Shown: positions 14,691 to 24,979, counted from the stretch's first letter. The stretch is DNA of 51,928 nucleotides from Dehalococcoidia bacterium (GCA_040882355.1 JBBEBM010000079.1:1-51928), one strand, 5' to 3'. Notes: generated by a model from the letters alone, not told the origin. Numbers and translations: made by a program.

Positions 14691-15566
14691 CTAACCGGCC
14701 TGCGCGCCATCCGCCGCCGGCGCATCCAGCACCCTGATCGCCGCTGCGATGCCGAATCCCGAGTCCGTGAACTCCCACGTCACGAACCGCTCGTCGCGCT
14801 GCACCAGCTCGCGCCACACTCGCTGCAGCGCCGGTGCCTGCGCGATGTCGTCGAACGCGAGGATGCCGCCCACCTTCAGCCGCGGCAGCGTGTTCGCGAT
14901 GTCGATCGCCGCGCCGAGCACCGAGTGGTCGCCGTCGACCGTAATCAGGTCGAAGTACAGGTCCGGGTGGCGGCCAAGGAACGCGGGAACCGTGCTCCGG
15001 CTGTCCCCCGCGATCAGCGTCACCTCGCCCGTGTGCCCGACGCGGCGCAGCTCCTCACGCACGAAGTCCGGCCCCGGGTTCTCGATGCCGCCGTAATCGC
15101 GGATCCAGAGATCGAAGCCGTGGATAGCGCACTCAGGCCGCAGCGAGCCGACGATCGATGCGCTCCTGCCCATGCGCACGCCGATCTCCAGGTAGCTGCT
15201 CGGCTGAAGGATGTTCGTCGCGGCGTAGAGCAGCGTGGGCAGGTCGGCGTAGCGCCAGTAGTCGCCGAACTTGTCGCGGCACCACTGATAGTAGGCGATC
15301 TGGCCCCCCAGATGAGCGCTTGGCGTCAGTCCCTCGCATAGCGCCAGGACGTACTCGTGCGCGTCCTTCGCCATCGCCGCCGCGCCGACCGTCGCGGGGC
15401 TGGGCGGCAGGAACGGCAGGTCCGCGTGGCCGGTGCTGACGGCCGGCGCGCTGCCCGTGTAGCGTGGACGCGGAAGCGGGCGCGCGCTGTCCCACGCCTC
15501 CAGCAACCGGTGCGCCAGCGGTCGCGCGCCCGGCAGGCGGCGGATCGTGTCCGCTGCGCTACTCAT
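14691..15566 (-). CDS. Class I SAM-dependent methyltransferase (Methyltransf_24-like), paralog 2
   Basis: YLEIGVRMGRS, FDLITVDGDH, LKVGG; ATG 15566 overlaps the upstream stop (ATGA). Confidence 0.85.
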   Translation of the reverse strand: MSSAADTIRRLPGARPLAHRLLEAWDSARPLPRPRYTGSAPAVSTGHADLPFLPPSPATVGAAAMAKDAHEYVLALCEGLTPSAHLGGQIAYYQWCRDKFGDYWRYADLPTLLYAATNILQPSSYLEIGVRMGRSASIVGSLRPECAIHGFDLWIRDYGGIENPGPDFVREELRRVGHTGEVTLIAGDSRSTVPAFLGRHPDLYFDLITVDGDHSVLGAAIDIANTLPRLKVGGILAFDDIAQAPALQRVWRELVQRDERFVTWEFTDSGFGIAAAIRVLDAPAADGAQAG

Positions 15567-16414
15567 TCGGAGACGCGGACGGCGATCGCGACGCCCGTGC
15601 GGGCGCCGGTGAACTCCCAGCTCACGAAGCGCCGGTNNNNNNNNNNCCAGATCCGCCGCGACGTCGGGAAGAACGGCAGGTCGTCGTAGATCAGCACACC
15701 GCCCACCTTGAGTCGCGGCAGCGTGTTCGCGAAGTCGTCCGCCACGCCCGGCACCGACTTCTCGCCATCGACCGTGATCACGTCGAAGAAGAGATCGGGG
15801 TGCTGGCGCAGGAACGCTGGTACCGTCTGGTGACTGTCGCCGGAGACGAGGACGACCTCGCCCGTGTGCCCGACGCGCCGCAGCTCCTCGCGCACGAACT
15901 CGGGCCCCGGGTTGTCGACGCCCGCGTAATCCGGGATCCAGAGGTCGAAGCCGTAGATGGCGCATTCAGGCCGCAGCGACCCGACGAGCGCCGCGCTCCT
16001 GCCCCTTCGAAGCCCGATCTCCAGGTAGCTGTTCGGCTTGATCAGCGTCGCCGCCGCCCAGAGCGCCGTCGTCAGGTCCGCGTGGCGCCAGCTTGCGCCG
16101 AAGCGCTCGCGCGACCAGAGGTAGTACGAGAGCTGCTCGGTCAGCTCCTGGCTCGGCGTCAGCTTCTGGACGAAGTCGAGCACATACTCGATCGCTTCCG
16201 GCGACATCGCCGCAGCGCCGACCGTCTCGGCGCCCGGTGGAAGGAACGGGTCGAGCGGCTCGCTCCCGCCGATACGAGGCGTGTTCGGGATGTAGCGAGG
16301 CAGCCTGAACGGGCAGACATTCGCCCATTCCTGGCGCGCCTGCTTCAGGCCGCTACGAAAGCCCCGAACGAGGGGGCGCGCTCCCGGGACGCTGCGCAAC
16401 GCTGATCGTATCAT
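15563..16414 (-). CDS. Class I SAM-dependent methyltransferase (Methyltransf_24-like), paralog 1; spans an N gap
   Basis: YLEIGLRRGRS, FDVITVDGEK, LKVGG; probable start ATG 16414. Confidence 0.82.
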   Translation of the reverse strand: MIRSALRSVPGARPLVRGFRSGLKQARQEWANVCPFRLPRYIPNTPRIGGSEPLDPFLPPGAETVGAAAMSPEAIEYVLDFVQKLTPSQELTEQLSYYLWSRERFGASWRHADLTTALWAAATLIKPNSYLEIGLRRGRSAALVGSLRPECAIYGFDLWIPDYAGVDNPGPEFVREELRRVGHTGEVVLVSGDSHQTVPAFLRQHPDLFFDVITVDGEKSVPGVADDFANTLPRLKVGGVLIYDDLPFFPTSRRIWXXXXRRFVSWEFTGARTGVAIAVRVSE

Positions 16415-17236: not shown

Positions 17237-17983
17237 CTACGGCGCAGTGGCGTTGACCCGCTTCGGGATCCGCTTGCGCCGCATCCGAGCCAGACCCTGC
17301 AGGTCCTCCGCCACCGTCTTCAGCACGTTCACCCTCGTGTCCGGGTCCTCCACCCAGCGCACCGGCACCTCCTTCACGCGATAGCCACCCTTCTCCGCGA
17401 GCAGCAGCAGCTCCGTGTCGAAGAACCACTCCTGGTTCTCGATGCGGGGCAGCAGCTCGTGGGCGGCCTGACGGCTGATCGCCTTGAAGCCGCACTGCGT
17501 GTCGGAGAGCCGCGAGAGGAAGAGCAGCTTGATCAGGAAGATGAACCCCCGCGACGTGATCTCGCGCTTGATCGAGCGCGTGATCTGCGAGCCGCGCGTC
17601 ATCCGCGAGCCGTACGCCACGTCGTGGCCCTCTTCGAGGACCGCCCGCGCGAGCGGAAGCAGCCCGCCGAGGTCGGTCGAGAGGTCGATGTCCATGTAGC
17701 ACATCGCGTCCGCGTCGCTCTCCGACCAAGCCTTGCGCAGCGCTCTGCCGCGCCCCTTCTGGTCGAGGTGTACGACGGTCAAGTCCTCGCCTACGTCCTC
17801 GAGCCGCGATGCGAGCTCCTGCGCGACCGACAGCGTCTCGTCCGTCGAGGCGTTGTCCGCGACGGTGATGCGACGGGTGTAGGGAAACTGGTGCTCGTTC
17901 AGGTACGCCCGCAGCCGCTCGACGCTGCCCGCCAGCACGTGCGCCTCGTTGTACACCGGCAGCACGATGTCTAGCTGGGGCAC
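17237..17983 (-). CDS. Glycosyltransferase family 2 (polyprenol-phosphate glycosyltransferase-like)
   Basis: PVYNE, ADNASTD, YMDIDLS, DTQCGFK, WFFDTE; probable start GTG 17983 with GGAG upstream. Confidence 0.9.
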   Translation of the reverse strand: MPQLDIVLPVYNEAHVLAGSVERLRAYLNEHQFPYTRRITVADNASTDETLSVAQELASRLEDVGEDLTVVHLDQKGRGRALRKAWSESDADAMCYMDIDLSTDLGGLLPLARAVLEEGHDVAYGSRMTRGSQITRSIKREITSRGFIFLIKLLFLSRLSDTQCGFKAISRQAAHELLPRIENQEWFFDTELLLLAEKGGYRVKEVPVRWVEDPDTRVNVLKTVAEDLQGLARMRRKRIPKRVNATAP

Positions 17984-18141
17984 CGGCCGCTCCAATCGCA
18001 CGCGTCATGTCTCGGCGCGGTCGTCTCCCATAAGCCCCTCTCCCGCGAGGCGGGAGAGGGGTGGCCGAAGCATGCCCTGAGCGTTGCCGAAGGGGCCGGG
18101 GTGAGGGTGGAAACGGGCAGGACGATGTCGAGCTGGGGCAC
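17954..18141 (-). repeat. Duplicated 5' end of the GT2 gene (17954-17983 vs 18112-18141) flanking a palindromic element
   Basis: Both copies encode VPQLDIVLPV; 4 of 30 nt differ, all synonymous third positions. Confidence 0.8.
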
Positions 18142-18415
18142 GGGACGATTCTATCGACTGCGCGTCTTGGGGCCTAGGGACGGTCGTGCGGTCGAGGGCC
18201 GCCCTACGTTGTCATGCTGAGCGCAGCGAAGCATCTTTCGGTGCGCAGGGGAACCGCAAGACCCCTGGACAAGCTGAGGGTGCCAATAGTGGGACGCGTC
18301 CAAGGGAGACCCGGCCCAGGACAGAGCTGAAGCTCTGTCCCTACATCCGCCGCACACGCTCCGACCGCCATCCGTTGATCCGTTCTCGGAATCCGTTGAC
18401 AGATGATCCGTTGCC

Positions 18416-19513
18416 TCAGACGCAGAGCGAATCCTGCAGCGTCTGCGACAACTGCAGCGGGTCGCTGGCGACGACGCTCGCGGCGTACAGCTCCATCCCG
18501 CCGAAGTCGTTCGTTCGGGTCGTCGGGTCGCCCCGGTCGACGATGCGCACCATGATCGGGAAGCCGTCCCAGCTCTCGTGCGTCGGCGCCAGCGGCGGCC
18601 GGTAGAGCACCAGGTTGAACGCCGTGACGCCCAGCCGGTCTCGATAGCACGCGAGCACGTCGTAGACGCGGTCCTTGAGCGAGTCGCTCATCTCGTCCGC
18701 CATCAAGATCACCTCGTTCTCCTTGATCGGGGCCATGTTCGCCATGACGCGCACGCCGTTGCAGCGAAAGCCCGCGCCGATCAGCTCGTGCGCGGTGTAG
18801 AGCGCGTCGAAGTAGTTCTGGCGGTGCGTCGCTTCGAACAGCAGCGCCGAGCGCCGCAGCGACTCGATGGCGGCGTAGTGCATGTCGCGGCCGAGCATCA
18901 CCTGACAGTGGCCGTGCAGCAGCGATGCCCCCGCGCGCCAGAGGCAGTTCCAGAGCAGGAAGTAGTACTTCGCCGCCGGGTCGCTGCGGTGCGCCAGCGC
19001 GGCCCAGCGCTCGCCCGTGTCGAGGTAGTCGTGGATCTGCTCTCGAGTGAAGTGGAGCGGGTGCTTCTCCTTGAACACGACGACGCTGTGCAGCCCGTCG
19101 AACTTCGCGATGTTGCTCGCCGTCGTGCACCACTCGCTCTCGACGCGGCCGAAGGTGTCCTCAGGCGTCAGGTTGTACACGTCGTCGAACGGCTCGTTGT
19201 TGGCGCGCTCCAGCTCCTCGTCCAGGTCGAGCTCGCTGCGCCACATCGGGCGGGCGGAGCGCAGCCAGTTGAAGAGCACGCCCTCCAGCGTCACGACGTT
19301 CGTCACCTTGACGATCTTCTGCCGGCGCACCTGGTCGACGCCGCCGAAGCGCTCCTCGATCCAGGGACGCATCGCCTCGGGCGGCACAAGGTCGCCCTCC
19401 GTGGTGCTGACGTGGAAGACGCGCTCGAACGCGAGCCGGTCTTCGAGCGGCAGCTCCGCCACAAGCTCGTCCAGGCGCATCACCGTCAGGTCTGAGGCCA
19501 CTGTCATCTCCAT
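18416..19513 (-). CDS. GalT-like HIT-superfamily nucleotidyltransferase/phosphorylase
   Basis: WN....AGASLLHGHCQ (HxHxQ) and an upstream SNIAKF..H motif. Confidence 0.7.
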   Translation of the reverse strand: MEMTVASDLTVMRLDELVAELPLEDRLAFERVFHVSTTEGDLVPPEAMRPWIEERFGGVDQVRRQKIVKVTNVVTLEGVLFNWLRSARPMWRSELDLDEELERANNEPFDDVYNLTPEDTFGRVESEWCTTASNIAKFDGLHSVVVFKEKHPLHFTREQIHDYLDTGERWAALAHRSDPAAKYYFLLWNCLWRAGASLLHGHCQVMLGRDMHYAAIESLRRSALLFEATHRQNYFDALYTAHELIGAGFRCNGVRVMANMAPIKENEVILMADEMSDSLKDRVYDVLACYRDRLGVTAFNLVLYRPPLAPTHESWDGFPIMVRIVDRGDPTTRTNDFGGMELYAASVVASDPLQLSQTLQDSLCV

Positions 19514-19749
19514 ACCCCCTACGTATGTTCGTCAGTTTCCTACCATCTCGTAACGCGGTTGGGGTCCGGTTGATTGCGGGTATGTCTAAAGAAGTAGGGC
19601 CGGACACTCGCGACGTTCGCGGCGGGGCCGCGCCGCCGTTCGTTGGCCCGGTGTTCGAGCCCGACAGACCTGCCGCTCGTGCCTTGGCACTTTGCTCCCC
19701 CGTCGCATCGCTCATCCTGGTTCCTGGTTGCAGATTCCTGGCTCCTTCG

Positions 19750-21321
19750 TCAGTGCCTGAAGTGCCGGTATCCCGTCACCACCATCGCGACGCCCAGCCG
19801 GTCGCAGGCCGCGATCACGTCGTCGTCGCGCACGGAGCCGCCCGGCTGCGCGACCGCCCGCACGCCCCCCTCCGCCGCCAGCTCGATGCTGTCCGGGAAG
19901 GGAAAGAACGCGTCCGAGGCCAGGGCGCTGCCGGCGGCGCGCTCGCCCGCGGCCTCCAGCGCCAGGTGGACGCTGTTTACGCGGTTCGGTTGGCCCGCCC
20001 CCGCCCCCACCATCGCGCCGTCCTTCGCCAGGACTATCGCGTTCGATTTCACGTGTTTCACGGCCTTCCACGCGAAGCGCAGGTCGGCGATCTCCTGCTC
20101 GGTCGGCGCCCGCTTCGTGACGCTGCGGAACTCGATGTCGCCGTCCGGCACCTGGTCTGGCGTTTGCAGCAGCATCCCGCCGACCACCTGCCGCACTTCG
20201 AAGCGGCTCGCGTCCGGCTCGATGAGCGGCGCCTTCAGGATGCGCAGGTCGCGGCTCTTCGACAGCAGCGCGACCGCGTCGTCGTCGTACTCCGGAGCGA
20301 CGATGATGTGGAGGAGCAGGCGCTGGCCGCTCGTCGGGTGTTTCGTGCCGCGGATCTCCTCGGCCAGCGCGCGCGTGACGGCCCGGTTGATGCCCACGAT
20401 GCCGCCGAACGCGGAGACCGGGTCGCCGAGGAAGGCCCGCCGCCAAGCCTCGCGGACGTCCGCGTTCGCCGCGAGGCCGCAGGGCGTCGCGTGCTTGATG
20501 ATGGCGACGGCCGGCTCGCCGAAGTCGCAGGCGGCCCGCCACGCCGCATCCGCGTCCAGGTAGTTGACGTACGACATCTCGATGCCGTGGAGCTGCTCCG
20601 CCGCCGCGATGCCCTGCCCCTGCAGCGTCGACGCGTCGGCGTAGAACGCCGCCCGCTGGTGCGGGTTCTCTCCGTAGCGCAGGTCCAGACGCTTCCGCAG
20701 CCCGAGCGTCAGCGCCTCCGGGAACTCGTCGCCTTCGCGCAGGTACGACGCGATCGCCGTGTCGTACAGCGCGACGTGCTGGAAGGCCTTCGTCGCCAGC
20801 CGGCGACGCTCCGCCGGCGTCACAGCGCTCGGGGCGCCGCTATGCGCGCGCAGCGCTTCGAGCACCGGCGCGTAGTCGGCCGGGTCGACGAGCGGCAGCA
20901 CGTGCGGGTGGTTCTTTGCGGCGGCGCGCAGCATCGTCGGCCCGCCGATGTCGATCTGCTCCAGCGCGTCCTGCAGCGTCACCCCCGCCTTCGCGATCGT
21001 CTCGACAAACGGGTAGAGGTTGACCGCGACGAGGTCGATAGGCGCCAGGCCATGCTCTTCGAGCTGGCGCAGGTGGTCGGGCAGGTCGCGCCGGGCGAGG
21101 AGGCCGGCGTGGACGGCGGGATGCAGCGTCTTCACGCGCCCGTCCAGGATCTCAGGGAAGCCCGTCAGCTCCGAGATGCCCCGTACCTCAAGCCCCGCCT
21201 CCGCTAGGTGGCGCTGGGAGCCGCTGGTGGAGTAGACCTCCGCGCCCAGGTCCAGGAGGCCGCGCGCCAGCTCCTGGGCGCCGGTCTTGTCGTATGGGGC
21301 GATGATGGCGCGCAGGGTCAA
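19750..21321 (-). CDS. purH: Bifunctional AICAR transformylase/IMP cyclohydrolase
   Basis: GRVKTLHP, IDIGGP, LRYGENPHQ, SAFGG, KSNAI, SDAFFPF, RHFRH; TTG start. Confidence 0.97.
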   Translation of the reverse strand: MTLRAIIAPYDKTGAQELARGLLDLGAEVYSTSGSQRHLAEAGLEVRGISELTGFPEILDGRVKTLHPAVHAGLLARRDLPDHLRQLEEHGLAPIDLVAVNLYPFVETIAKAGVTLQDALEQIDIGGPTMLRAAAKNHPHVLPLVDPADYAPVLEALRAHSGAPSAVTPAERRRLATKAFQHVALYDTAIASYLREGDEFPEALTLGLRKRLDLRYGENPHQRAAFYADASTLQGQGIAAAEQLHGIEMSYVNYLDADAAWRAACDFGEPAVAIIKHATPCGLAANADVREAWRRAFLGDPVSAFGGIVGINRAVTRALAEEIRGTKHPTSGQRLLLHIIVAPEYDDDAVALLSKSRDLRILKAPLIEPDASRFEVRQVVGGMLLQTPDQVPDGDIEFRSVTKRAPTEQEIADLRFAWKAVKHVKSNAIVLAKDGAMVGAGAGQPNRVNSVHLALEAAGERAAGSALASDAFFPFPDSIELAAEGGVRAVAQPGGSVRDDDVIAACDRLGVAMVVTGYRHFRH

Positions 21322-21734
21322 GACATCTCTTCCCTCAGACTCTCCTCGATGATAGGCCGAAGGGCGTTCAACATGCCGTCGACGACCCTGAGTGCCTCTT
21401 CCGCCTCTTCCTTGGTGTATTCGTGTTCAGAGGCAAGGTCGGGGTACCTGGTCGAGACGTAGTACCCGTCGACATTGCGCGCATCTTCCTCCAAGGCCCC
21501 GACCCTCTCATCCAGTCCGGCGCAAAGAGCAACCAGCCGAACCAGCTCGTGGGTCTTCGGGTAGGGGACACCGTGGGCCAGGAGAAGCGCCTTGAGCATC
21601 TTCTCGAAGACTTGCTGGCAGGCGAAACAGGCTTGGGCATAGTAGCCACCAGCGAAGTCGTGCCTCGCCCAGCCGCTGTCTCGGAGAGCGCTCTCAAGCC
21701 ACGCCTGTGCGTCGGCGGACAGCGGCTCGGTCAT
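21318..21734 (-). CDS. HEPN domain protein (MNT-associated)
   Basis: ACF.CQQ.FEK.LKA, KTHEL, Y..TRYP, EEAE.AL pattern. Confidence 0.9.
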   Translation of the reverse strand: MTEPLSADAQAWLESALRDSGWARHDFAGGYYAQACFACQQVFEKMLKALLLAHGVPYPKTHELVRLVALCAGLDERVGALEEDARNVDGYYVSTRYPDLASEHEYTKEEAEEALRVVDGMLNALRPIIEESLREEMS

Positions 21735-22068
21735 AGATCACCTTACCCTTAGCGAGCACCTCTTGGGTGAGAAAGAAGCGATTCTTGCTAATGCCGCGCT
21801 CCAGCTCCTCCGGGGTTAACACGAAGATATCTGTGGAGCGCCAAATGTGAATGGCGTGATTGAGCTCTCGAATCCGCTGGAAGTAGGGCTTACGGGTGCG
21901 CTTGATCACCAAGAGGTCGAGGTCGCTGTCCTGGCGCGCCCGGCCGGAGGCGGCGGAGCCGAACAGGATGATCCTCTCCGGCCGGTACACCTGGACGATG
22001 CGGTCTCGCACGTAGGCGATGTCGTCGGCCAGCGGGCCCATGGGGCGGACGGCGAGACGGCGCGCCAT
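21694..22068 (-). CDS. Minimal nucleotidyltransferase (MNT) antitoxin-like protein
   Basis: ILFGS-x10-DLD (GSX10DXD); GKVIY near the C-terminus. Confidence 0.9.
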   Translation of the reverse strand: MARRLAVRPMGPLADDIAYVRDRIVQVYRPERIILFGSAASGRARQDSDLDLLVIKRTRKPYFQRIRELNHAIHIWRSTDIFVLTPEELERGISKNRFFLTQEVLAKGKVIYDRAAVRRRTGVA

Positions 22069-22148
22069 CAGGGGCGCCTCCCGCGCGCCAGCTCCTGGGC
22101 GCCGGTCTTGTCGTATGGGGCGATGATGGCGCGCAGGGTCACGCTGCT

Positions 22149-22177
22149 AGGCTAACGGGTGGGGGACTCTCGTTCAA
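22149..22177 (-). promoter_or_regulatory. Sigma70 promoter, probably leaderless, upstream of the first purH 5' copy
   Basis: TTGAAC (22177-22172), 17 nt, TAGCCT (22154-22149), 6 nt, GTG (22142). Confidence 0.6.
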
Positions 22178-22188
22178 ACGACCTTCGA

Positions 22189-23247
22189 TCACGCCACCGT
22201 AACTCGATTGGATGGGGCCGAGTGGGCCACCACCTCACCCACCACGAACGCGTCCGGCAGCGAGGCGCGGATGCCGGCGACCTCCGACGGCGCCGCCGCC
22301 AGCACCAGCCCCACGCCCATGTTGAACGCGCGCCACAGCTCCTCTTCGGCCACGTTACCCTCTCGCTGGATCAGGCGGAAGAGCGGCGGCGCCTCCCACG
22401 CCGAGCGGTCGACGCGCGCTCCGAGACCTTGCGGAAGGATGCGCGGAATGTTCTCGATCAGGCCGCCGCCCGTAATGTGCGCGATGCCCTTCACCATGTC
22501 ACGCACGGCCGCCACCTCGCGCGTGTAGCCCCGGTGCGGCGTCAGCAGCGCCTCGCCCAGCGTTACACCTAGGTCGGGCTCGATCCGCTGCAGCCGCGCC
22601 CGGTCTTCGTCGCGGTCGCCGCCCACGCCGATGCCGAACACGCGCCGCACCAGCGAGAAGCCGTTCGTGTGCAGCCCGCTCGAAGACAGCCCGATCAGCG
22701 CGTCGCCCTCCTTGATCGATGACCCGTCGATGATCGAGTCGCGCTCCACCGCCCCCACGACGAAGCCCACGATGTCGAAGTCGCCCGGCGCGTAGATGTC
22801 GGGCATGTCGGCGGTCTCGCCCCCGATCAGCGCGCATCCCGCCGCGACGCACGCCGACGCGATGCCGCGCACCAGCGCCTCCTTCTCGTCCGGCGTCAGC
22901 GTTGAGGAGGCGATGTAGTCGAGGAAGAAGAGCGGCTCCGCGCCCGACGTGATGATGTCGTTCACGTTCTGGTTGACGAGGTCGACGCCGATCCCCTCGA
23001 AGCGCCCCAGCAGCGACGCGATCCGCACCTTCGTGCCGACGCTGTCCGTGCTGGACACAAGCACCGGCTCGCGATACGACCCGAGCGCGAACAGCGCGCC
23101 GAACGGCCCCACCCCCGCCAGCACCTCCGGCCGGTGCGTCGACGCCGCAATCGGCCGGATCCGCTCTATGAACCGCTTCCGCGCGTCGATATCTACGCCA
23201 GCGGCTGCGTATGTCAGGGGAGGGCGCTGTGATTCGCTAGCCGGCAT
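22189..23247 (-). CDS. purM: Phosphoribosylformylglycinamidine cyclo-ligase (AIR synthetase)
   Basis: TYAAAGVD, STDSVGTK, GAEPLFFLDY, GGETA, SSGLHTNGFS, HITGGG, FNMGVG. Confidence 0.97.
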   Translation of the reverse strand: MPASESQRPPLTYAAAGVDIDARKRFIERIRPIAASTHRPEVLAGVGPFGALFALGSYREPVLVSSTDSVGTKVRIASLLGRFEGIGVDLVNQNVNDIITSGAEPLFFLDYIASSTLTPDEKEALVRGIASACVAAGCALIGGETADMPDIYAPGDFDIVGFVVGAVERDSIIDGSSIKEGDALIGLSSSGLHTNGFSLVRRVFGIGVGGDRDEDRARLQRIEPDLGVTLGEALLTPHRGYTREVAAVRDMVKGIAHITGGGLIENIPRILPQGLGARVDRSAWEAPPLFRLIQREGNVAEEELWRAFNMGVGLVLAAAPSEVAGIRASLPDAFVVGEVVAHSAPSNRVTVA

Positions 23248-23386
23248 ATCGTGTGAGGACGGAACTCCCCTCTCCCGCCAAGCGGGAGAGGGGCCGGGGC
23301 TGTGGGTAGCACCGCTTGCGCGCGTCGATATCTAAGCCAGCGCTTGCATACGTGAGCGGCGGCCGCTGCGATCCGCTAGCCGGCAT
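23172..23386 (-). repeat. Duplicated 5' end of purM (23172-23247 vs 23311-23386) flanking a palindromic element
   Basis: 76-bp ungapped alignment with 12 mismatches, 8 of them synonymous; MPASESQRPPLTYAAAGVDIDARKR vs MPASGSQRPPLTYASAGLDIDARKR. Confidence 0.92.
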
Positions 23387-23518
23387 GGCTGATGGGAGAG
23401 ACTCCCCCTCTCCCTCGGAGCGAGGGAGAGGGGCCAGGGGTGAGGGAGCGAGGGCGCGGCGAATCGCTGGATGATACGGCTAATGCGGTGGGCACGGAGC
23501 CGGCGGTGAGGGCGGCCC

Positions 23519-24979
23519 TCACGCCCTGGGGCTGACGGAGGGCACCGTCTCCGTCCACTCGAACTCGTGACGGTCGCTGCCCGCGACGGGCTCCAGCGCC
23601 AGCTTGTCCATCTCCAGCGGCACCGGCATCGGGTAGTTGCCGGTGAAGCAGGCCAGGCAGAACTTGTCGCGCGGCTTGCCCACCGCCTCGATCAACCCCT
23701 CGACGCTCAGGTAGCCGAGCGAGTCCGCGCCGATGTGCTCGCGGATCTCCTCGACGACCATGCGCGCGGCGATCAGCTCCCAGCGCCGCCCCATGTCGAT
23801 GCCGAAGAAGCAGGGGTGCGTGATCGGCGGGGCGGTGATGCGCATGTGCACTTCGCGCGCGCCCGCCTTGCGGATCATCGCGACCACGCGCGATGCTGTC
23901 GTGTCGCGGATGATGCTGTCGTCCACGACGACGACGCGCCGGCCTTCGAGCAGCTCCGGCAGCGGGTTGAACTTGAGCTGCACGCCGATGTCGCGAAGGC
24001 GCTGGTCGGGCTGGATGAACGTGCGCCCAACATAGCGGTTCTTGACGAGACCCTCGACGAACGGGATGCCCGACTCCTGCGAGTAGCCGACCGCGGCCGC
24101 CGTCGCCGAGTCCGGTACGCCGATCACGACGTCAGCGTCGGCGGGATGCTCCCGGGCGACCTGGGCGCCCAGCGCCATCCGCACCGGGTAGACCAGCTTG
24201 TTGTCGATGACGCTGTCGGGGCGGGCGAAGTAAATGTACTCGAAGATGCAGAAGGCGTCCTTGCGCGCCGCCGCCTGGTGGCTCTCGACGCCTTCGCTCG
24301 TGATCCGAACGACTTCGCCCGGAGCGATCTCGCGCACCGACGTGGCTCCCAGGTGGTCGAATGCGCACGTCTCGGAGGCGACGACCCAGCCGCCGTTGAG
24401 CTTGCCCAGGCTGAGCGGGCGGTTGCCCATCGGGTCGCGCGCGGCCATCAGCTCGTCCTTCGTCAGCACGACCAGCGAGTACGCGCCCTGGACGCGTCGC
24501 ATCACGTAGCTCCAGCGCTCCCGCCACGTTGCGCCGGGCGCGTGGGCGAGCGCGCTCGCGATCACCTCGGCGTCGGTGCTGGACGCGAACTCGACCCCCT
24601 GCTCCTGCAGGTCGGCCTGTAGGACGGCGGCGTTGACGATGTTGCCGTTATGGCCCAGGGCCAGTTTGCCGTTCGGCCCGTCGGTCTCGATGGGCTGGGC
24701 GTTGCAGGCCAGGCTGGAGCCGGTGGTGGAGTAGCGGGTGTGGCCGATCGCCATGTAGCCGGGCAGATAGCTCAGGTCCTCTTCGTCGAAGACCTGCGAG
24801 ACGAGGCCCATGCCGGTGCGGAGATTGAGATCGAGGCCGTTGGTTGCAGCAATCCCCGCGCTCTCCTGCCCTCGATGTTGGAGGGCGTAGAGCCCGTAGA
24901 AGGCGATCCTGGCAACGTCTTCGCCCGGGGCGTAGACCCCAAAGACGCCGCAGGCCTCACGAGGGTGCGAATCGGTCAG
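23519..24979 (-). CDS. purF: Amidophosphoribosyltransferase (Fe-S, propeptide type); probable CTG start
   Basis: In-frame extension gives TDSHPREACGVFG..LQHRGQESAG; also GHTRYST, HNGN, CIFEYIYF, CFFGID, CLAC. SD GAGGAGG lies before CTG 24979. Confidence 0.95.
   Translation of the reverse strand: MTDSHPREACGVFGVYAPGEDVARIAFYGLYALQHRGQESAGIAATNGLDLNLRTGMGLVSQVFDEEDLSYLPGYMAIGHTRYSTTGSSLACNAQPIETDGPNGKLALGHNGNIVNAAVLQADLQEQGVEFASSTDAEVIASALAHAPGATWRERWSYVMRRVQGAYSLVVLTKDELMAARDPMGNRPLSLGKLNGGWVVASETCAFDHLGATSVREIAPGEVVRITSEGVESHQAAARKDAFCIFEYIYFARPDSVIDNKLVYPVRMALGAQVAREHPADADVVIGVPDSATAAAVGYSQESGIPFVEGLVKNRYVGRTFIQPDQRLRDIGVQLKFNPLPELLEGRRVVVVDDSIIRDTTASRVVAMIRKAGAREVHMRITAPPITHPCFFGIDMGRRWELIAARMVVEEIREHIGADSLGYLSVEGLIEAVGKPRDKFCLACFTGNYPMPVPLEMDKLALEPVAGSDRHEFEWTETVPSVSPRA

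Follow-up and report, generated by a model that had tools for sequence, protein, structure and literature searches.

Duplicated gene ends around inserted DNA in a Dehalococcoidia genome: a probable recombination scar known from restriction-modification genes, here genome-wide and family-wide

How does a conserved gene come to carry a second copy of its own start, with other DNA in between? The question is raised by a contig of 51,928 nt from a Dehalococcoidia bacterium (GCA_040882355.1 JBBEBM010000079.1; this whole stretch is called the window below), in which purF, purM, purH, a gene encoding a 365-amino acid (AA) product and a glycosyltransferase gene (GT2) follow each other in this order, all on the minus strand, as are the repeat copies and inserts described with them below. 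Three of them, purM, purH and GT2, have a duplicated 5′ end. The window is contig C79 of a 3.33-Mb genome (G000; 82 contigs, 67% GC, 94% complete) assembled from sediment metagenomes. Our comparative analyses indicate that these loci belong to a known kind of insertion, and that what is new here is the varied cargo, the repeat edges tied to codons, the genome-wide extent and the use of both 3′ and 5′ gene ends. We read them as scars of recombinase-independent insertion of foreign DNA beside conserved genes, in which diverged donor DNA was anchored on one conserved gene end. We give this reading about an even chance of being right, and each of its mechanistic steps is one that we infer.

All three loci share one layout, namely an upstream copy of the first 11–25 codons, an insert and then the intact gene. 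For purM (AIR synthase, 22189..23247; Pfam AIRS and AIRS_C), the functional downstream copy of the first 25 codons (23172..23247) and an orphan upstream copy (23311..23386) are identical at 64/76 nt and are separated by a 63-nt spacer (23248..23310) that holds a palindromic mini-element with a hairpin at 23267-23294. Since a further copy of the mini-element lies 5′ of the orphan purM start (23404..23446), element and start together form a tandem unit; blastn lengthened the match to a unit of ~139 nt (137-nt alignment, 77% identity), which comprises one mini-element and the first 25 codons. For GT2 (17237..17983; Pfam Glycos_transf_2, E 7e-22), the GTG at 17983 is the most likely start, as relatives open at the same VPQLDIV residues. 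Its functional downstream copy (17950..17998), with 15 nt of leader 5′ of the GTG and 11 codons, matches the orphan upstream copy (18108..18156) at 39/49 nt, and at 26/30 over the first 30 coding nt. The 109-nt insert between them (17999..18107) holds a palindromic mini-element with its inner hairpin at 18034-18061 and an outer arm motif adjoining the upstream copy. The inner hairpin, CCCCTCTCCC...GGGAGAGGGG, is present in both the purM and the GT2 insert. For purH (AICARFT/IMPCHase, 19750..21321; Pfam E 1e-109), the functional copy (21260..21320) and the orphan (22081-22141) are identical at 61/61 nt, and the 760-nt insert between them holds a predicted toxin-antitoxin (TA) pair.

The upstream copies open as short open reading frames (ORFs). 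Those of purM (23386..23237, 49 AA) and GT2 (18141..17971, 56 AA) stop ~10 nt within the downstream copy, and the stop of the purH one overlaps the next start. An earlier, sequence-only reading of this interval had reported the three duplicated starts with their identities (61/61, 64/76 and 26/30), the short ORFs and the lack of integrase or transposase genes, and all of these hold, the last by Pfam for the six genes of the interval. It had also taken the mostly synonymous differences as a sign that both copies evolved as functional N-termini. The bias is there, with 8 synonymous vs 3 non-synonymous codon differences for purM and 4 vs 1 in the coding part of GT2, but by our arithmetic each case is too small to exclude drift. 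Rfam returned no family at E ≤ 1 between positions 17800 and 23700 of the window, so none of the small inserts is a known riboswitch or other known RNA.

Self-comparison of the genome showed that the layout is recurrent and non-random. Local direct pairs (25–220 nt, identity of 78% or more, spacing of up to 3 kb) numbered 139, and 66 direct vs 6 inverted loci were left after a copy-number filter and merging. Of 88 low-copy pairs, 46 involve a gene 3′ end and 17 a 5′ end; 6 lie within a gene, 22 are of other kinds, and a few fall in two classes. The insert-side edge of the repeat lies at most 8 nt from a called stop codon in 20/72 merged loci, vs 2.2 ± 1.3 (maximum 6) in 200 position shuffles. 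Start calls were too imprecise for a null of edge against start, and start-type cases were therefore curated by hand. This gave eight beyond the three of the window, ~11 in all, examples being an AhpC-like gene whose cargo is an APH kinase, a thiolase-like gene, a ClpB-like gene that has a hairpin as its insert, and a remnant of polA in decay. With 3/11 of the curated cases lying within 6 kb (p ~0.0016 for uniform placement), the purine operon is a hot spot. Repeat length forms a continuum from 29 to 525 nt, the longest remnants measuring 226, 359 and 525 nt; copies are often 80–90% identical, and some pairs are near-identical (96–100%).

Similar loci were found in a 400-kb sample of a 591-kb contig from the same family (G001; 7 direct, 0 inverted), where duplicated gene ends, and duplicated segments of leader plus start, enclose cargo genes, and in 400 kb of a closed single-contig relative of another family (G021; 3 direct, 0 inverted, with a gene-terminus anatomy that is unclear under the ORF filter used). 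We therefore ascribe the pattern to the lineage and not to a single assembly. At one 3′-end locus of the window genome (G000:C35:27893-28516, L034), 101 nt of the Ku gene 3′ end are duplicated at 98% identity around a 422-nt insert with a 70-AA ORF, and the two copies have different stop codons.

The sequence-only reading had expected a particular class of small cargo, which does not agree with what the repeats enclose. Pfam matches of bracketed genes include three APH-family kinases, an ABC1 kinase, HEPN/MNT, PIN/MazE, a DUF5615 protein, DUF559 and NYN nucleases, methyltransferases, DinB, SnoaL and PNPOx, and many cargo genes have no Pfam match. The cargo is compositionally foreign: the median G+C content at third codon positions (GC3) is 0.79 vs 0.886 (p 4e-10), and the codon-usage score per codon 0.22 vs 0.40 (p ~1e-10), for 35 vs 2975 genes. 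Pfam detected no integrase in the 35 bracketed cargo genes or in the genes flanking them (85 genes in all), and the sole mobility match in this set is one IS200-type Y1 transposase, itself cargo at C50. This 133-AA protein (G000:C50:1440-2098, L042), encoded between 125-nt direct repeats of 81% identity in a repeat-dense region, may be a transposase associated with repetitive extragenic palindromes (REPs).

Small inserts, down to 55–120 nt, are mostly palindromic mini-elements. Yet a hairpin of at least 9 bp is present in only 13/67 inserts, and 43/51 matches to the mini-element motif have no detectable flanking repeat, the other 8/51 lying between repeats, vs ~8% of non-genic DNA. Hairpin elements as the general agent are ruled out by these counts, and the duplication is therefore not the property of one element. 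A classical transposon or MITE (a miniature transposable element with inverted repeats), with a fixed target-site duplication under ~15 bp, does not fit repeats that are long (29–184 nt) and variable. Simple tandem duplication as a general explanation is ruled out for most loci, where the insert is unique and is not repeated past the second copy; it is possible at purM, C39:13942 and C73:17486.

The gene order purF-purM-purH-(365-AA gene)-GT2 is kept across the family, and the purM|purH junction was found in three states: empty, insert with orphan, and clean insert. It is empty in six relatives (G012, G014, G011, G010, G003 and G008). The TA pair with a duplicated purH start is present in three genomes of three genera, with identities of 61/61 in the window genome, 42/42 in G015 and 50/53 in G004. 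A clean TA pair (MNT 81% identical) is carried by a metagenome contig, L188, in which MNT starts 6 nt past the purM stop, HEPN stops 4 nt before the purH ATG, and no orphan purH start is present. Other cargo occupies the junction in G002 and G005 (Type II restriction-modification pairs) and in G009 (an aspartyl-protease-like gene). These inserts have low GC, run in the operon direction, end at the purH start and have no repeats. Empty sites and alternative cargo at these junctions, which the sequence-only reading had proposed to look for, were found. Cargo at the purH junction is often present with no duplicated start, which counts against that reading: the clean TA pair, the restriction-modification pairs and the G009 gene all lack repeats. 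The restriction-modification pairs (G002, L015 2707-4393; G005, L018 2598-4540) consist of an N6_N4 DNA methylase and an EcoO109I-like endonuclease gene and have 55% GC.

A distantly similar HEPN-MNT pair (35% identity) lies between a MoxR-like gene and purH, without a repeat, in a genome from another family. Self-comparison of 16 relative loci revealed no purM or GT2 duplication, the two purH ones being the sole flanking repeats, so the purM and GT2 starts are single-copy where the junctions are present. The metagenome contigs compared did not show an empty-site joint across the TA insert, though contigs cannot show absence. Among the matches listed for a purH search, the nearest named ones are metagenome-assembled genomes of uncultured Chloroflexota/Dehalococcoidia, with at most 61% purH identity.

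At the purH start, the predicted HEPN-domain toxin gene (21318..21734; Pfam HEPN, E 5e-29; GC3 0.76 vs the genome median of 0.886) is adjacent to the predicted MNT nucleotidyltransferase antitoxin gene (21694..22068; Pfam Polbeta and NTP_transf_2) in one operon. MNT lies upstream of HEPN and overlaps it by 41 nt, as in HEPN-MNT type II/VII TA modules; the difference is that the predicted module sits here in an essential purine operon and has the start of the host gene as its leader. The TA insert has 62% GC and the adjoining purH 72%. Comparison with relatives at the junction showed that purH now starts with TTG (21319-21321), overlapping the HEPN TGA, and that the ancestral ATG has become CTG. 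The orphan copy opens with GTG (22140-22142) and lies inside a leader ORF, purH′ (22068..22142), of 20 purH codons and 4 more, whose TGA overlaps the MNT ATG. In all three genomes the orphan start is such an intact leader ORF with its stop overlapping the MNT ATG (TGATG in G000, TAATG in G015, ATGA in G004). They also have in common a GGAGG before the MNT ATG and a HEPN TGA two nt 5′ of the ancestral purH ATG, and divergence of the TA genes follows that of purH across them. Together, these shared junction features and the parallel divergence suggest a single origin for the TA insert with its orphan.

Within G000, and likewise within G015, the two purH copies differ at 0 positions, and 4/36 nt differ between these genomes. 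This pattern is that of concerted evolution, with gene conversion apparently keeping the two copies identical within each genome. The identical 61-nt tract takes in the HEPN stop codon, so conversion would have run from the downstream to the upstream copy. Repeat identity therefore cannot date the insertion event at purH, since conversion resets it. The orphan start may have been retained as a translated leader; because its stop overlaps the MNT start, we propose that the TA pair and purH are read as one translationally coupled chain. A TA pair could in this way be wired into an essential biosynthetic operon.

To account for these loci, we suggest that the donor was a related organism with the cargo (TA pair, accessory gene or mini-element) directly beside a conserved gene, the end of which would have been the sole homology between donor and recipient. 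A circularised fragment may have entered by a single crossover; or a one-ended homologous invasion may have copied the donor gene end and the cargo, the new end then being connected to the other end of the break. Both routes would leave the gene intact and add the cargo together with a short orphan copy of the gene start or end. Survivors would be the products with one intact gene, which would explain why scars gather at gene termini, and repeat edges would coincide with start or stop codons because donor-recipient homology stops there. Gene conversion would afterwards homogenise the orphan, as at purH, or else the orphan would decay. In homology-facilitated illegitimate recombination (HFIR), foreign DNA that has no recombinase of its own enters through one homologous anchor and an illegitimate joint, and a duplicated anchor end is atypical; HFIR was reportedly described in transformable bacteria by de Vries and Wackernagel in 2002, Prudhomme et al. 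in 2002 and Meier and Wackernagel in 2003.

Several results agree with diverged alleles brought together in this manner. Over 43 ungapped pairs, the differences at codon positions 1/2/3 number 78/74/208 (58% third). Among 15 stop-coincident pairs, 13 orphans have a stop at the same place, 6/13 of these have a different stop codon, and similarity ends there. Mismatch polarity between functional copy and orphan is symmetric (80 vs 82). An intact gene with a nearby orphan terminus and cargo between them is the anatomy of terminal displacement, and the clean TA pair of L188 has the donor-type arrangement that the proposed model requires. The model also draws on the excess of direct over inverted loci, the repeat edges at stop codons, the continuum of remnants up to 525 nt, the foreign composition of the cargo and the similar loci of G001. 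The window genome encodes Ku (Pfam).

Other results weigh against it. A donor allele that recombined in, which the sequence-only reading had suggested and which is the best-supported reading in our analysis as well, was not found: a 28-nt stretch specific to the orphan purM copy gave 0 matches in metagenome contigs, a result that is uninformative because exact matches alone count. Several mini-element inserts abut the repeat exactly, most clearly at G000:C43:90227, which has the appearance of a genuine in-place target duplication. By our arithmetic, the third-position excess is just moderately above that of a null with a drifting orphan and a constrained copy, and purM alone does not reject this null. 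Net indels are not multiples of three in 12/15 gapped pairs, so the orphans are decaying now. HFIR in experiments usually replaces or deletes recipient DNA and does not duplicate it. In H. pylori, left and right repeats are given by Furuta et al. (PMC2853133) as closer to each other than to the empty site, which fits in-place duplication or conversion equally well. Finally, genes were called with our own crude codon-usage caller (3024 genes), whose start positions are unreliable.

Insertion with long target duplication is said to have been reported first by Nobusato et al. in 2000. Furuta, Abe and Kobayashi (2010; PMC2853133) describe restriction-modification genes within variable direct repeats of >30 bp, with a single copy at the empty site and no mobility genes; in H. 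influenzae the repeat overlaps a gene 3′ end, and the mechanism is given as unknown, with DNA breakage suspected. The loci analyzed here fit every feature of that description bar restriction-modification cargo. Direct repeats exceed 30 bp (61, 76 and 49 nt in the window, 66 loci genome-wide), vary in length, are genome-unique and in some cases overlap a gene 3′ end; a relative has an empty site with one repeat copy; and inserts are under 20 kb and have no linked mobility genes. The long target duplication was defined on restriction-modification genes, with breakage by the enzyme suspected, whereas the window cargo is HEPN plus MNT and mini-elements, and the genome-wide cargo comprises the TA pair, kinases, methyltransferases, nucleases, Pfam-less genes and 55–120-nt palindromes. 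Further differences are the ~70 loci in one 3.3-Mb genome with edges bound to start or stop codons, copies often 80–90% identical with coding-like differences, and one case that extends across three genera with concerted evolution.

Related processes have been proposed for other gene ends. Jackson et al. (2009; PMC2935791) derive Rhs orphans from an episomal circle with a variable length of the conserved gene and new cargo, integrated by one homologous crossover; Kirchberger et al. (2017; PMC5361080) propose HFIR for effector displacement in the type VI secretion system (T6SS); and Touzain et al. (PMC2884548) hold that homology-assisted illegitimate recombination shapes small variable segments. 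At Rhs, contact-dependent inhibition (CDI) and T6SS loci, a gene likewise recurs as orphaned fragments behind its intact form, with new cargo in between, and successive events stack orphans, as at G000:C42:85985. There, however, an internal conserved core is repeated and the displaced tips differ in function (toxin/immunity diversification), whereas here the genes are ordinary housekeeping ones whose end stays the same, what is orphaned is a short, redundant terminus, and 5′ cases occur too. With long target duplication and Rhs/T6SS terminal displacement already reported in these sources, the view that the route is undescribed has to be given up. Nothing specific came from literature searches on TA genes with 5′ duplication or from those on MITEs in Chloroflexi. 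At G000:C42:85985-86321 we observed three successive copies of the C-terminal end of one gene with palindromic mini-elements between them, like stacked layers of displacement.

The strongest competitor, which we consider rather unlikely and yet far from negligible, is a true long target duplication made in place, where a break with long staggered ends is filled in, or the template is switched twice during replication so that a stretch of target is copied again, and the copies are identical at birth before one of them drifts while the other stays functional. Inserts of exactly one mini-element between repeats (C43:90227), frameshifting indels, pairs of 96–100% identity, the purM unit with its likeness to a tandem copy of element plus start, and the enrichment of mini-elements between repeats (8/51 vs ~8% of non-genic DNA) all speak for it, and the literature treats the phenomenon as target duplication of unknown mechanism (PMC2853133). 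Copies identical at birth would not be expected to give the spike of repeat edges at stop codons, with some edges inside the stop codon, the different codons at 6/13 retained stops, the symmetric mismatch polarity or the third-position excess. Nor does duplication in place readily explain remnants of up to 525 nt, the clean TA form at the same site, or the 43/51 mini-element matches lacking a detectable flanking repeat.

Elements that rebuild the gene end into which they integrate offer a different account. Phage 21 and e14 in icd and SXT in the prfC 5′ end are flanked by a duplicated gene end with mostly synonymous differences, and SXT supplies a new 5′ end; such elements carry an integrase and a defined attachment (att) site. 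If the repeats described here were attL and attR of integrative elements that have since lost the integrase and most of their length, the geometry would be the same, and one tRNA locus (G000:C68:56372-56579) does have an att-like appearance. We regard this as improbable, because no integrase was detected by Pfam among the bracketed cargo genes or flanks, inserts are as small as 55–120 nt, the ~70 target sequences are all different and each is unique, and repeat length varies from 29 to 525 nt. The tRNA locus consists of three tandem copies resembling a tRNA gene 3′ end, ~140–170 nt apart, like remnants of an attachment site.

The sequence-only reading had interpreted the window as a dedicated, undescribed mobile route, in which small cargo targets 5′ ends, captures promoter and start, and brings a replacement N-terminus. 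It drew its appeal from three start-type cases within 6 kb and from leader ORF stops that overlap or fall just within the next start. To these can be added the leader-MNT overlap kept in three genera and the recurrence of addiction-type cargo (TA, restriction-modification) at the purH start in relatives. The wider survey makes it very improbable: 3′-end pairs exceed 5′-end ones (46 vs 17 of 88, with ~11 start-type cases after curation), the cargo is heterogeneous, the same junction takes up cargo without duplication, and the inserts have no common terminal sequence or gene (hairpin in 13/67). The geometry of a supplied N-terminus is right, but no dedicated element is needed for it.

Concatenation of strain variants in a metagenome-assembled genome of 82 contigs and 94% completeness, whose unitigs break inside the exact 61-nt repeat, is a most improbable source of these structures, given that the purM and GT2 pairs and one purH junction are spanned by single contigs, which come from up to three samples, that purH has the same structure in two other genomes, that density is similar in the same-family 591-kb contig with some cases in a closed single-contig relative, and that diverged repeats have no long common k-mers to mislead an assembler. 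Bridging Logan contigs were found for the purM pair (X1 record 7), the GT2 pair (X1 record 1, X2 record 9 and X4 record 25) and the junction of the purM end, purH′ and MNT (X4 record 29), with 0 differences from the window; the runs all come from one study, are not independent of the study behind the assembly, and X1 may be the source sample. The HEPN/purH copy is not bridged by any contig among those listed, since k-mer graphs necessarily interrupt unitigs within an exact repeat such as this one of 61 nt. Independent support comes from G015 and G004, each with the purH structure in its own sequence.

Returning to insertion of diverged donor DNA anchored on one conserved gene end, a wider picture can be drawn, which we offer tentatively and with a good deal of doubt. 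Conserved gene ends in this Chloroflexota family may act as generic landing pads for recombinase-free gene gain, which would account for a large share of recent accessory-gene acquisition. TA and restriction-modification modules would prefer the start of an essential purine gene, where the orphan start could serve as a translated leader held identical by conversion, and the toxin would punish repeat-mediated deletion. The outcome would be a stable, self-protecting, operon-embedded element. Gain of single genes without phages, transposons or integrases is poorly documented beyond a few model species, and no mechanism for insertion with long target duplication has found acceptance since its first report. 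This lineage provides ~70 examples in one genome, with varied cargo and codon-bound edges, and these loci together with three natural states of one site make the mechanism testable. Where such genomes show short orphan ORFs or duplicated starts or ends of genes, these would be recombination scars, which annotators may miscall.

Among the neighbouring genes, purF (23519..24811) provides the upstream operon context and was named by synteny and by reading its translation, without Pfam. Neither Pfam nor NCBIfam gave a match for the conserved 365-AA gene (18416..19513). G008 and G007 lack it and have purH and GT2 next to each other, so it is itself an insertion or a deletion. A gene of ~620–730 nt, with a Walker-A-like GxxGxGKT stretch recognized by eye, lies between the 365-AA gene and GT2, directly before GT2, in G004 (L012), G012 (L013) and G014 (L019). 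In these three genomes GT2 starts with M(K/R)LDIV and not VPQLDIV, and no flanking repeat was detected there.

Several other hairpin repeat families are present at 18200-18340 of the window and in intergenic gaps of the operon in many relatives. Some of them open with GTAG and resemble the GTAG-tagged REPs named in the title of PMC3733652. Just past GT2, at 14691-16399, two adjacent paralogous genes share 551 nt at 76% identity, with a short masked (N) stretch inside.

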